Of a stretch of DNA of 64,000 nucleotides, positions 42,528-48,727 are shown piece by piece (position 1 is the first letter of the stretch; each line of letters starts with the position of its first letter). The position numbers and the translations under genes were made by a program. Source of the stretch: Candidatus Thorarchaeota archaeon (GTDB lineage: Archaea > Asgardarchaeota > Thorarchaeia > Thorarchaeales > Thorarchaeaceae); contig JBHIAE010000008.1 of the NCBI GenBank assembly GCA_046758445.1, positions 1 to 64,000 on the forward strand, written 5' to 3'. Under the pieces are notes generated by a model. That model saw only the letters and a program-made list of their open reading frames with translations. It ran no database searches and was not told the DNA's origin.

Positions 42528-43208
42528 TCAGTGTCGTTTCTTTCTGGGTCCCAAGTAGTTAGCAAGGGACAGTACAAAACTCTCCGTAGGCTCCATGGCC
42601 TCGGGAACAAGCTTCACAGAAACAAACACATGCGGCTCCCGATGAGCAATTGAGAGCCGAGTGAGATACGGCCTGACAGCTTCAGCGTCAATCCTGAATT
42701 GAGGACTACGGAAGAGATTCTCACTGGCCTCATGGTCAGACGCGACGACGTAGAACTGCTCAGTCAGATTCTCAATCTCTAGTTCACGAACACTTTCGGA
42801 GCGGTCCTTCAATGCTTCCTCAAGACGGTGTTGTTCCCTACGAGTGGCGAGTTCGAGGCCGAATGTTGGAGGTCTTCTGAGATTTGCTCTTATTTGGAGT
42901 TGATCAGTTCGGCCTCGAGCCCTGCAGTAGATCATATGGAACATGTTGGAACGGTCGAGCAATAAGACGGAAGTTTCAAGTTTCGAGAAAGGACCACTTG
43001 ATTTCTGATGAAAGGAGAATTTGGCTCCTGTATTACCAAGAAGTCTGACGCTGACCTTTGATGTAGTTGCTTGAAACCGAGTAGCGACATTCTGTGCGAC
43101 CTTATTGCGAAGTTTTGATGTGACCATGCGACCTATCATCCAAGTCCCGACTACAAAGATTGCCAAACCAGCTAGGAGAATATACCCAGTTTCAGAGATG
43201 TCCTGCAT
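42528..43208 (-). CDS. Single-pass membrane protein with resemblance to the CCDC47/DUF1682 core
   Basis: N-terminal TM ending in IG; LLLDRSNMFHMIY..ARGRTDQLQIRANL; see findings. Confidence 0.6.
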   Translation of the reverse strand: MQDISETGYILLAGLAIFVVGTWMIGRMVTSKLRNKVAQNVATRFQATTSKVSVRLLGNTGAKFSFHQKSSGPFSKLETSVLLLDRSNMFHMIYCRARGRTDQLQIRANLRRPPTFGLELATRREQHRLEEALKDRSESVRELEIENLTEQFYVVASDHEASENLFRSPQFRIDAEAVRPYLTRLSIAHREPHVFVSVKLVPEAMEPTESFVLSLANYLGPRKKRH

Positions 43209-43334
43209 TACCTTCGACTCCCATTAGTGGTACATTGAACAGGCTGTTTCTTGTACAATATCCCCCCTTAAGGATATCCCAGAAGCACAAGCGATATAAC
43301 CCCGACGTGCGGTGAAGTCTGTGATGGAAGCATC

Positions 43335-43952
43335 ATGACGACTGACAGGCAGGTTGACGCTACACGTGAGATCTGCATCGAAGCATGGAACATGCTTTTT
43401 GGACGCGCAGTGTTTGCCTACATCTCACTGCCTGCAGCATGGGTAACAGGATATCAGATCAATGACCCCTTGGTCACCAATCGATTCCTCTACAAGAACC
43501 TCGTATGGGTTGGCTCAGGTGAGATTGAATGCCTCATCTCACGTGGGCATGGAATGGAGAAACGCCCCAATCTTGACTTCAGGTTTAAGGTGGTCGTAGA
43601 CCTACAGAAAGACGCTCTTGTTGCACCCAGTCCTGAGGACCTTCTCAATCGGCACGACGAGAAAGGCCACGAAGTACTAGAGCATGGGGAGCTGCATACG
43701 GGCGGCCATAGCGGAAGCTATGTGCTTTGGGCTTCATCCCGACCCCGCTTCGGAGTCTTTGGACGACCTCGTCTCAAAGCGCAGCTTTACGGCTATATAC
43801 CGTGTGACGAAACATCTCGGCTCGTAAAGGTTGTCTGGACCTCTCCATCTCCTAAGCTGATTCTCGAGCACTCAGGCGAGCTAATCACTTCGCTGACCTC
43901 CATGCTATGTCATGGACGCGAGATGCAACCTCACGAAGATGCCCTTCTCTAG
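43335..43952 (+). CDS. Hypothetical protein upstream of cstA
   Basis: 205-aa ORF, beta-rich pattern, GGHSG and IPCDETSR motifs. Confidence 0.75.
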   Translation: MTTDRQVDATREICIEAWNMLFGRAVFAYISLPAAWVTGYQINDPLVTNRFLYKNLVWVGSGEIECLISRGHGMEKRPNLDFRFKVVVDLQKDALVAPSPEDLLNRHDEKGHEVLEHGELHTGGHSGSYVLWASSRPRFGVFGRPRLKAQLYGYIPCDETSRLVKVVWTSPSPKLILEHSGELITSLTSMLCHGREMQPHEDALL

Positions 43953-44069
43953 TCGTGAACGTTACTGCCAACGATTCTCTCAGCTACACTCGCACACAAT
44001 GGCCAAGATTAAGGAAGATTCACCGGTACATTTAAGGTGAGGAAGGGGCATAATCTACGTTATCTGAAA

Positions 44070-44098
44070 CCGAGATTCCGAGGTTCTTGGAATCTCGG
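44070..44098 (+). promoter_or_regulatory. Strong inverted repeat in the cstA leader
   Basis: CCGAGATTCC-GAGGTTCTT-GGAATCTCGG with perfect 10-bp arms, between TTTAAG (about 44031) and the start codon. Confidence 0.6.
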
Positions 44099-44118
44099 CT
44101 TTGAAGGTGGTTAGGGTT

Positions 44119-46299: not shown

Positions 46300-46369
46300 G
46301 CCATCTAGTCAGATTTAAACAAAAAGAGTTATAGGGCCCTAGCCTTCCAGACCCTTCAGGGATTACCGC

Positions 46370-46657
46370 ATGCAACCTGAAAAAGAAGGTGACACTTCGG
46401 ACAAGAAACGTGGCGCAAAGGGAGCAGTGAAGGACTTCTTCTACGGCATGGCAATGCAAGGTATGGCCAGATATGCATTGAAGACGCGCATGTACTTGGA
46501 ACACTTGTTCATGCTCATCACTCTCGGAGATATGCTAGGCATCCCTATCCTTCCGCCGTATTACTCGCTCAAGCTTCTACCCTATGCAGTACCCAACATT
46601 AAGACTTGGAAACGTACGCTGTTCAAGGAACGCGACTTTACGGATGCACTCTTCTAG
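46370..46657 (+). CDS. Small CstA/ArsA-associated protein, paralogue 2 (cory-CC-star-like)
   Basis: KDFFYG...LFMLITLGDMLGIP..PPYYSLKLLPY...WKRTLFKERD. Confidence 0.8.
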   Translation: MQPEKEGDTSDKKRGAKGAVKDFFYGMAMQGMARYALKTRMYLEHLFMLITLGDMLGIPILPPYYSLKLLPYAVPNIKTWKRTLFKERDFTDALF

Positions 46658-46704
46658 GTCGGTATTCCTCACCTCACATTCGTTGCATATCGAGGAGAAA
46701 TGTT

Positions 46705-47712
46705 ATGGCACGAAACATGAGCAGTTTCTACGAAATCAATCCTGACGTAAGAATAGCAGTGTTTGCTGGGAAGGGAGGTCTGGGCAAGACCACATGCAGT
46801 GCTGCACTGTCAATGTGGCTATCAAAGCAGAAGAAGAACGTTTTGTGCTTCAGTACCGATCCTCAAGCCTCATTGTCCGACATCTTCGAGAAAGATGTGT
46901 TCGGGAAAGGGGCCCAGAAGCTGGCTCAGGACCTATTCGTGATGGAAATTGATGCGGACAAACGCATCGCGGCCTTCCAGGAAGAAATCCGGCAGCAAAT
47001 CAAAGACATGTATGGTATTAAGGAAATCCCCAAGGAGATTGATGAATATATCAGTGCGGCCAGTGCTGAGCCCGCCATGCACGAGTCTGCCACCTATGAT
47101 GCAATGGCAGGTTTGCTGGCCTCTGAAGAGTATGATCTCTATGTCTTTGACATGCCACCTTTTGGCCACGGGATTCGAATCGTTTCCATGGCTCGAATCT
47201 TGGACATCTGGGTGGATAAGATGGAAGAAACGCGAAGGAAGGCCCAAGAGTATGGCGATTCTGCATATCAAATGCAACAGAAGACAGCTGGTGCCGGCCA
47301 AGATCAGATGCTTGCCGAGCTGCAAGACATCCGGAAGAAGCTGGGCTTCTTCCAAGATATCCTTACTGACAGCAAACGAACAGCATTCTATATGGTTGTC
47401 ACACCTGAGAAGATGTCAATTCTGGACACGGAACGCGCACTTCAGATGTTTGAACAAATGGAGATTACGCTGACGGGGGTCATCGTCAACCAGGTCTATC
47501 CAAAGGAACTGCTCCAACGGAATGATCTGAGTCCGTTTCTGCGCGAACGTATTGAGATGCAGCAGAGATACATGGTCGAGATAGAAGAGAAGCTGGGTGA
47601 CCATGTGTGCGCTGTGATTCCGATGTTTGACCGCGAACCTAAGGGACTCGAAATGATCAGGAAAGTATCTGATGTCATGATGAGTTGGAATGAAAAGATA
47701 ACGGGGGACTAG
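46705..47712 (+). CDS. ArsA/Get3(TRC40)-family ATPase 1
   Basis: GKGGLGKTT, STDPQASLSD, EIDA, DMPPFGH, IVNQV; ATG at 46705 after GAGGAG. Confidence 0.93.
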   Translation: MARNMSSFYEINPDVRIAVFAGKGGLGKTTCSAALSMWLSKQKKNVLCFSTDPQASLSDIFEKDVFGKGAQKLAQDLFVMEIDADKRIAAFQEEIRQQIKDMYGIKEIPKEIDEYISAASAEPAMHESATYDAMAGLLASEEYDLYVFDMPPFGHGIRIVSMARILDIWVDKMEETRRKAQEYGDSAYQMQQKTAGAGQDQMLAELQDIRKKLGFFQDILTDSKRTAFYMVVTPEKMSILDTERALQMFEQMEITLTGVIVNQVYPKELLQRNDLSPFLRERIEMQQRYMVEIEEKLGDHVCAVIPMFDREPKGLEMIRKVSDVMMSWNEKITGD

Positions 47713-47716
47713 AACA

Positions 47717-48727
47717 ATGTCTGAATCCAAATTCAAGGACTTCGTGAATCAGCACCCGAAGCTGAAGTACTTCTTCACAGGCGGTAAGGGTGGCGTTGGC
47801 AAGACTGTTAGTGCTGCCGCGATTGCTCAGTATTTTGTTTCACAGGGGAAGAAGACCCTCATTGCTTCTCTGAATCCCGTCCACTCGCTCTCAACTCTCT
47901 ATGGTCAGGAGATATGGGGGCAAGGGATTCAGAAGATTAATGGAGCGGAGAATCTGTGGGGAATAGAGGTTGATATCATGGAGAAGATAGGAACCTATCG
48001 TGATCAGCTCACGGAACGTATCACCTCATTTCTCAAGTGGGCGGATATCCCAGTTGACCCTGCAGCGTTCATTGATATCGCCGTGACCAATCCGGCGTTC
48101 GAAGAATCTGCTCAGTTCGATACTATGACTGATATTATGCTTGAACAGGGAGAGAACTACGATGTCATTGTGTTTGACTGTGCAGCCGTGGCCAATGCGA
48201 TTCGACTATTGGGTCTCAGCAAGATCTACGACCTCTGGCTAAGCCGCATGATTGAAAGCAGGAAGGAAGCCTTGTCTCTCAGAGTTCAGCTCTCCTTTAG
48301 AAAGGAGAAGGTTGCCGACGAGGTCAAGAAGGACCCTATGATGGCGGACCTCTTGCGGCAGCACCAGAAGATGAGTAGGGCGAAAGAGATTCTTAGTGAT
48401 GTGGAGAGAACTGCATTTGTATTCGTTACGATTCCGCTGGCACTTCCCATTGCCGTGGTACAGAGGTTCATCACAATGGTGCGGGCCTTTGATATTCCTG
48501 TTGGCGGAGTCTTTGTAAACCGCATCATTCCGCAGTCAGCAGCAGAAGAAGACGCCACCGAATACATGAAGAACAGTTACCAACAGCAGGAACGATACAT
48601 GAATATGATTCGTGACCAATTGGGAAACCTTGTTAGTGCTTATGTTCCTCTGTATCCCACAGAAGTGAGCGGTGTTCAGGGAATCGTCCAGTTCTGCGAG
48701 GACATGTTAAGTTTCAGACCTGAGTGA
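47717..48727 (+). CDS. ArsA/Get3(TRC40)-family ATPase 2 (degenerate switch motifs)
   Basis: GGKGGVGKTV, SLNPVHSLS, FDCAAVAN, FVNRI. Confidence 0.92.
   Translation: MSESKFKDFVNQHPKLKYFFTGGKGGVGKTVSAAAIAQYFVSQGKKTLIASLNPVHSLSTLYGQEIWGQGIQKINGAENLWGIEVDIMEKIGTYRDQLTERITSFLKWADIPVDPAAFIDIAVTNPAFEESAQFDTMTDIMLEQGENYDVIVFDCAAVANAIRLLGLSKIYDLWLSRMIESRKEALSLRVQLSFRKEKVADEVKKDPMMADLLRQHQKMSRAKEILSDVERTAFVFVTIPLALPIAVVQRFITMVRAFDIPVGGVFVNRIIPQSAAEEDATEYMKNSYQQQERYMNMIRDQLGNLVSAYVPLYPTEVSGVQGIVQFCEDMLSFRPE

Follow-up and report, generated by a model that had tools for sequence, protein, structure and literature searches.

Genes of the locus

The window, by which we mean the whole stretch of 64,000 nucleotides analysed here (positions 1 to 64,000 of the forward strand of contig JBHIAE010000008.1, assembly GCA_046758445.1, from a Candidatus Thorarchaeota archaeon), carries seven adjacent open reading frames between positions 42528 and 48727. 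All seven are present where a preliminary description, made from the letters alone, had placed them. They encode a CstA-family carrier, two small proteins (CstX1 and CstX2), two ATPases of the Get3/ArsA family, a single-pass protein (CstY) and a soluble protein (the 43335 protein), while an eighth gene may belong to the same module:

42528-43208, reverse strand: CstY, 226 amino acids (aa); N-terminal transmembrane helix and CCDC47-type globular domain, no C-terminal latch helices
43335-43952, forward strand: 43335 protein, 205 aa; soluble, Mog1p/PsbP fold, with H125, C157, C192 and H193
44101-45918, forward strand: cstA carrier; PF02554 (E 2.6e-98, 330 bits)
46039-46299, forward strand: CstX1; small, probably amphipathic paralogue, fast-evolving, with a weak NF041419 match
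46370-46657, forward strand: CstX2; small, probably amphipathic, strongly conserved, Cys-Cys tail absent
46705-47712, forward strand: ATPase-1, 335 aa; Get3/ArsA family (PF02374, E 2e-71), catalytic Asp kept
47717-48727, forward strand: ATPase-2, 336 aa; Get3/ArsA family (PF02374, E 3e-56), predicted to be hydrolysis-dead
48880-49263, forward strand: CPxC protein; candidate eighth member, Asgard-specific, with a C-terminal CPxC

The cstA gene could alternatively start at a TTG codon at 44119. The start of ATPase-1 is likely to be the ATG at 46705, since it is preceded by GAGGAG and relatives have matching starts. A scan of the locus for promoters and terminators gave results at chance level.

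Conservation and distribution of the module

A gene-neighbourhood survey, as the preliminary description had proposed, covered 80 cstA loci from named genomes, which are non-independent samples and many of which lie on contigs that are cut short. An ATPase is present in 69 of these loci, CstX in 67, a 42528 homologue in 47 and a 43335 homologue in 45. When the 32 loci with enough flanking DNA are considered, the ATPase pair and CstX are each found in 32/32, CstY in 28/32, the 43335 homologue in 21/32 and all seven genes in 17/32, so that the grouping is not due to chance. Gene order and orientation differ between loci, with several arrangements, and since the linkage survives this rearrangement, the sequence comparison argues for the module being one functional unit. 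The earlier idea of a single conserved multi-gene system is borne out by this co-occurrence across lineages, the hosts being Asgard archaea, Bathyarchaeia, other Thermoproteota, Caldarchaeales, Thermoplasmata, Bacillota and Desulfobacterota. Within the Asgard archaea its distribution is scattered, with just 16 strong matches to the carrier in 301 genomes, so that the module is probably mobile. In two Syntrophobacteraceae loci (L119 and L121), two or three cstA paralogues adjoin one CstX-ATPase block.

Relation to a published gene cluster

The system had been put forward as undescribed, which is not so: its core is the cstA-cstX-cstY-arsA cluster of Castillo & Saier 2010 (PMC2963123). From gene order, those authors recognised 26 clusters that combine cstA and arsA, and in almost every one a CstX of 90 residues; five archaea have a single-pass CstY of ~210 residues, Pyrobaculum arsenaticum and Thermococcus kodakarensis have CstX in duplicate, and two organisms have adjacent ArsA pairs; the clusters correspond to their ArsA clusters 14-15, with the tandem pairs in 15 (PMC2963123). 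The ArsA homologues have ~330 aa and are Cys-free, ars genes never occur together with the cstA operons, and co-evolution of CstA, CstX and the ATPase was reported (PMC2963123). In their proposal CstX couples ArsA to CstA, with ArsA energising CstA (PMC2963123).

A profile of the 42528 family detects a gene of 203-219 aa beside cstA in three Desulfurococcales-type cstA-X-arsA loci. These are presumably the loci of Ignicoccus hospitalis, Staphylothermus marinus and Hyperthermus butylicus, which are among the 2010 examples. In the putative I. hospitalis and S. marinus loci ArsA has 309 and 329 aa, the lengths given in Table 1 of the 2010 paper. In the putative H. butylicus locus the ATPase gene is truncated and cstA, cstX and cstY are intact, which agrees with the remark in that paper that ArsA is absent there. 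A profile built from the small proteins of the window also picks up the small gene in loci matching the 2010 examples. Since the 42528 family fills the CstY slot in three loci identified as 2010 examples, gene 42528 is, by sequence comparison, the CstY of that paper. Six of the seven genes belong to this published cluster, which apparently awaits experiment; a literature search for experiments on any member of the module found none.

The ATPase pair

Both ATPases score above the cut-off (135 bits) of the Get3/TRC40/ArsA subfamily TIGR00345, with 230.7 bits for ATPase-1 and 205.3 bits for ATPase-2, and the closest solved structures to ATPase-1 are those of archaeal Get3 (3zq6 and 3ug6). ATPase-1 has an STDP motif and a DMPPFGH switch II and lacks CxxC, while ATPase-2 has SLNP and DCAAVAN and retains Walker A and the signature Lys. 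D52 is invariant in 45 ATPase-1 homologues and N53 in 45 ATPase-2 homologues; the two sets were sorted by the Asp/Asn residue itself, and the independent evidence is the pairing within each locus, where 59 loci have one Asp-type and one Asn-type ATPase and 0 loci have two alike. N53 aligns with the Asp of STDP in Get3 3ug6, and yeast Get3 with the D57N substitution binds ATP and does not hydrolyse it (PMC12506534). ATPase-2 is predicted to be hydrolysis-dead and looks naturally inactive, and the pair would form a heterodimer with one working site. The heterodimer, suggested in the preliminary description, is judged probable on the Asp/Asn pairing in the 59 loci. The fixed pair provides a naturally occurring case in which half-site catalysis by Get3-family proteins can be examined, and makes the 2010 proposal, in which an ArsA homologue energises CstA, directly testable.

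The insert region has 22.6-23.4 residues in the module ATPases, compared with 21.3 in canonical Asgard Get3. In an alignment-dependent count, of the 25 columns that are hydrophobic in the helical domain of canonical Asgard Get3, ~9-10 hold polar or small residues in the module ATPases, which fits a fixed partner. CxxC is found in 0/90 module ATPases and in 28/28 canonical Get3 proteins, and the module ATPases are Cys-poor, with a mean of 1.2-1.5 Cys. The canonical Get3 of this genome is encoded apart from the module (contig C1:44795-45748, also L050:4796-5749) and has STDP, DTAPTGH and CxxC; canonical Get3 matches are present in 58/61 Asgard genomes. A complex prediction for ATPase-1, ATPase-2, CstX2 and ATP gave 0.55, with 0.00 for partner-replaced controls and 0.37 for the control in which ATPase-2 was replaced, and is not used as evidence.

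Efflux of arsenic or antimony is suggested by the Pfam name (PF02374) alone and can be given almost no credence. The ATPases are single-domain proteins without Cys ligands, having AEPAMHE and TNPAFEE at the position of the ArsA Cys motif, as had been noted before. Each scores 97.9 bits against TIGR04291, far from the cut-off of 650, and lacks its arrangement of two fused domains. Searches for ArsD, Acr3 and ArsB found no ars genes in the cluster, no ars transporter lies on this contig, and in the 2010 survey ars genes never accompanied cstA operons (PMC2963123). ArsD was not found in the genome, which is 92.7% complete, and ArsR was not searched for. The earlier statement that this is not an arsenic locus holds on these grounds. 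Elsewhere in the assembly there are ArsB-like matches on contigs C4 and C5, and acr3 is present only as a broken C-terminal fragment (contig C17:13590-13876).

The ATPase pair could instead act as the motor of a pump, the asymmetric dimer docking on CstA via CstX and powering every turnover of the carrier, much as ArsA powers ArsB. An ATP-powered CstA pump with a docked heterodimer was one of two options in the preliminary description; it had already been proposed in 2010, and it is considered here somewhat unlikely. Asymmetric sites are common in transporter ATPases, the ATPase pair occurs in every one of the 32 complete loci, and the reported co-evolution of CstA, CstX and the ATPase points the same way. 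However, the Get3-type groove is kept while the metalloid site through which ArsA hands over its substrate is absent, characterised CstA/BtsT proteins are described as pyruvate symporters, and the ATPase is truncated in the putative H. butylicus locus, where cstA, cstX and cstY are intact.

The carrier and the small CstX proteins

The carrier has ~13 predicted transmembrane helices in a hydropathy scan. Its score of 142.5 bits against NF011590, the equivalog of E. coli CstA, lies far below the cut-off of 1188. Where characterised, CstA/BtsT proteins are described as pyruvate symporters, and E. coli CstA requires its small neighbour YbdD for pyruvate uptake (PMC5847655).

CstX1 and CstX2 share 38% identity, with a profile-profile probability of 99.9, in keeping with their earlier assignment as paralogues. 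They score 19.7 and 30.6 bits against NF041419 (cory-CC-star; cut-off 80) and lack the Cys-Cys tail, and are thus homologous to this family without being members of it. All CstX2 homologues (45/45) match NF041419, below the cut-off. The last two residues are Cys-Cys or Cys-Sec in related small proteins encoded beside E. coli CstA (bioRxiv 10.1101/2022.07.06.499078). The mean identity of CstX2 is 66%, compared with 60-62% for the ATPases, and the mean column identity of CstX1 is 44%. In 65 loci the gene immediately before the Asp-type ATPase is CstX2, and this holds also where the block is inverted away from cstA. CstX1 is variable in position and forms a separate clade (39 rows, support 98/99) on a long branch, a feature that calls for caution in reading the support. 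Because neither protein has a full-strength transmembrane helix by hydropathy, CstX may be a membrane protein of the amphipathic or hairpin type. The number of CstX genes rises to three or four in some relatives; in four loci of close relatives (L014, L015, L016 and L018) three CstX genes lie in the operon and a fourth lies ~5 kb downstream, beside a rubrerythrin-like gene.

CstY and its relation to CCDC47

CstY, which has one hydrophobic segment (residues 8-26), had been called CCDC47-like, and both its family and its fold bear this out. As a single sequence the match is weak (E 0.027), and the PF07946 score of 14 bits lies below the Pfam gathering score of 27.7. Clustering at 50% identity leaves 329 representatives of the family, and PF07946 is matched by 29/150 aligned members, with a best E of 3e-8. 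The AlphaFold2 model (predicted local distance difference test 95.7) superposes on rabbit CCDC47 (7tut_4) with Z 17.5 and a root-mean-square deviation (rmsd) of 2.6 Å over 215 of 226 residues, on Chaetomium CCDC47 (9i78_4) with Z 15.3 and on mycobacterial TtfA (6t84) with Z 11.4, the next match having Z 6.6. Foldseek gives E 7.6e-9 for CstY and CCDC47, the ESM Atlas gives a template-modelling (TM) score of 0.82, and the sole match of the CstY profile in a PDB sequence search is CCDC47 9i78 (E 0.7). Judged by its predicted fold and its family profile, CstY is a true homologue of CCDC47. The model aligns with residues 76-366 of 9i78_4 and then ends, while the C-terminal part with the latch helices, which in CCDC47 contact the ribosome and Sec61, comprises residues 371-447; the window CstY thus lacks these helices. 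Such a latch-less protein could serve as a small, expressible model for the role of the CCDC47 globular domain. No match to Asterix (PF03669) was found in this genome, and none in the controls either. Between 42528 and 43335 there is no detectable homology.

The CstY family occurs in 111/301 Asgard genomes, in most cases unaccompanied by cstA; within the Thorarchaeote family it was seen only where cstA is present as well. CCDC47-like genes that stand alone, in genomes lacking cstA, are found in about 100 genomes and are near-universal in several Asgard families (e.g. 26/31 and 22/22); examples are L164:5104-6030, L165:5068-5967 and L166:4691-5605. The stand-alone copies of Heimdallarchaeaceae have ~300 aa and a long charged C-terminal tail, and score 32.6-37.5 bits against PF07946, above the cut-off, although the composition of the tail may add to the score. 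These are candidate orthologues of eukaryotic CCDC47. In a tree of CstY, from which eukaryotes are absent and in which one row (L177) is labelled cstA-linked though just a 43335 homologue adjoins it, the window protein lies among the cstA-linked copies and the stand-alone Asgard copies lie mostly elsewhere, with weak deep support. A single clade of stand-alone Asgard copies is allowed (p-AU, from the approximately unbiased test, 0.45), yet not shown. Because of these positions, the better candidates for the ancestor of CCDC47 lie outside the window, and the window copy is not likely to be the eukaryotic precursor. The origin of the PAT complex may likewise be sought among the stand-alone Asgard copies. 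In several Heimdallarchaeia, stand-alone genes lie 35-42 kb from Get3, a lead that was dropped; the intervening genes are unconserved between two families and no secY was recognised. A literature search found no paper on prokaryotic or Asgard homologues of CCDC47, and NCBI names some Heimdallarchaeota proteins DUF1682.

These results bear on the second option of the preliminary description, a module for membrane-protein targeting and biogenesis in which Get3 is joined to a PAT-like chaperone, ancestral to insertion at the endoplasmic reticulum (ER). CstY is indeed a CCDC47 homologue, the ATPases are Get3-like, and the 43335 fold recurs in chaperones of transmembrane helices, Eag/SciW (Z 7.9). 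That the module serves as an insertion pathway for Asgard archaea in general is nevertheless very improbable, since it is patchy (16/301 Asgard genomes) and shared with bacteria, canonical Get3 is encoded elsewhere (58/61 Asgard genomes), and other Asgard lineages have separate stand-alone CCDC47-like genes. The module is always tied to one carrier and is also found in Thermoproteota, Thermoplasmata, Bacillota and Desulfobacterota, CstY lacks the latch for contacts with the ribosome and Sec61, and the window copy groups with the cstA-linked and not with the stand-alone Asgard copies (deep support being weak). A narrower form of this option, in which the chaperone serves one carrier, is preferred.

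The 43335 protein and other Cys-motif proteins

The 43335 protein has no transmembrane helix and is a conserved member of the module with a Mog1/PsbP fold. It matches PsbP (2xb3) with Z 11.5 and an rmsd of 3.5 over 143 aligned residues, and many near-ties (Mog1, DcrB, SciW) make its specific family unassignable. H125, C157, C192 and H193 are each present in 44-46 of the 46 sequences of its family, and this His2Cys2 set is a probable metal site. The CPxC protein at 48880, which has no Pfam match, occurs in Thorarchaeote, Hermodarchaeote and Heimdallarchaeota-type loci; it adjoins the module in 10 loci, two of which are of the Heimdallarchaeota type and have another gene order, and is possibly an eighth, Asgard-specific member. 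A protein of 120-130 aa with N-terminal Cys motifs and no Pfam match lies beside the module in ~32/80 loci (e.g. L098:4165-4551), in other archaea and bacteria, and was not found in this genome.

In another explanation CstA would move a metal-bound or thiol-reactive solute, with the ATPase pair and the Cys/His proteins forming a metallochaperone relay. The invariant His2Cys2, the Cys-motif protein in ~32/80 loci, the CPxC protein in 10 and the Cys-Cys or Cys-Sec ends of the small proteins adjacent to E. coli CstA (bioRxiv 10.1101/2022.07.06.499078) are in its favour. This explanation is decidedly unlikely, as the CstX proteins of the window lack the Cys-Cys tail, the ATPases are Cys-poor, 43335 is missing from 11/32 complete loci, and the His2Cys2 set could be a structural zinc site.

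Proposed mechanism

The mechanism that we favour, with somewhat less than even confidence, starts from the observed gene content, co-occurrence, folds and motif asymmetry, and proposes the physical interactions, the substrate and the role of ATP. The module would be an ion-coupled carrier with dedicated accessory subunits, which a half-active Get3-like heterodimer loads or removes, and so assembles or switches the carrier. CstA would import a small organic solute, such as a monocarboxylate or a peptide-like compound, and would do so as part of a complex that also contains CstY, with its single transmembrane pass, and the small, amphipathic CstX1 and CstX2. The pair of Get3-like ATPases, with one working site between them, would act as a dedicated chaperone and switch, whose narrowed helical groove would hold CstX2 and load it onto the carrier or remove it. 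ATP would be spent on assembly or on/off control and not on each transport cycle. CstY may serve on the membrane side as a partner for docking or stabilisation, in the way that TtfA serves MmpL3, and the 43335 and 48880 proteins may add metal or thiol sensing.

This carrier-plus-chaperone arrangement is favoured because E. coli CstA needs YbdD, TtfA is a dedicated partner, being a stable accessory of one transporter, MmpL3 (PMC6593404), and the ATPases are chaperone-like without the ArsA substrate site. The Get3 architecture and altered groove of the ATPases, the constant Asp/Asn pairing, and the conservation of CstX2 and its position before the Asp-type ATPase also speak for it. Among the proteins that yeast Get3 targets there is, moreover, a membrane protein of the hairpin kind (PMC9123286). 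Several points weigh against this mechanism: a common fold does not establish a common function, YbdD is no more than a putative homologue of CstX, no substrate-pathway gene recurs beside the module across lineages in a neighbourhood clustering, and the reported co-evolution of CstA, CstX and the ATPase would fit a permanent pump complex equally well. A further step, offered as an unlikely speculation, is that the CstY family was the prokaryotic stock of the stand-alone Asgard copies and then, through gain of a ribosome-binding tail, of eukaryotic CCDC47, and that the module works as a prokaryotic line of membrane-protein assembly reserved for one carrier, in which a half-active Get3 heterodimer delivers CstX to a CCDC47-type membrane partner.

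Neighbouring genes

Upstream of the module, genes of an A/V-type ATP synthase lie on alternating strands (36928-42334); subunits I, K and C are identified by family search, and H and E are probable from position and size. Only subunit C remains adjacent in one close relative examined. Downstream (49438-51694) are ketopantoate reductase-like, DUF2148 ferredoxin-like and rubrerythrin-like genes, which follow the module in close relatives too; a DUF2148 gene lies inside two Heimdallarchaeota-type loci. A lactate racemase (LarA)-like gene and an FGGY carbohydrate kinase gene are found at 52883-55839.

Comparison with known systems

The module shares with the 2010 clusters the CstA carrier, a CstX of ~90 aa that can be duplicated, a single-pass CstY of ~210 aa, single-domain ATPases of ~330 aa without the ArsA Cys, in tandem as in cluster 15, and the absence of ars genes. 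The window differs in having the tandem pair and CstY together, whereas cluster 15 has no CstY, and in having an extra conserved PsbP-fold gene (43335) that was not named in 2010. The fixed Asp/Asn asymmetry and the homology to CCDC47 are also absent from that paper, which noted just that D can be replaced by N. The literature searched contained no report of the CstY-CCDC47 homology, of the additional gene with His2Cys2 or of the fixed asymmetry between the ATPases; searches combining Get3 with CstA and CCDC47 with Asgard, and one for BagA/BagB, returned nothing relevant. As in the CstA-YbdD system of E. coli, a CstA-family carrier is followed by a small protein, but the window CstA belongs to a distant subfamily (142.5 compared with 1188 bits), and neither CstY nor an ArsA-type ATPase is described in the E. 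coli system.

CstY resembles CCDC47 of the PAT complex and multipass translocon (PDB 7TUT, 7TM3 and 9I78) in its globular fold, in the transmembrane helix that precedes it and in a family-wide sequence signal. It differs in its size of 226 aa, the absence of the latch, a score below the Pfam cut-off, its encoding together with one carrier, and its spread over bacteria and archaea. TtfA, the accessory of MmpL3 (PDB 6T84; PMC6593404), has a related fold (Z 11.4) and likewise partners a single transporter, but its identity to CstY is 7%, and its transporter family (MmpL/RND) and its organism are different. Archaeal Get3/TRC40 proteins (PDB 3ZQ6 and 3UG6) are the closest solved relatives of the ATPases, which keep the helical subdomain and the insert. 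Unlike canonical Get3, the module ATPases lack CxxC and DTAPTGH and have an altered switch II, and they would form a heteromeric pair with one Asn subunit and fewer conserved hydrophobic groove columns.

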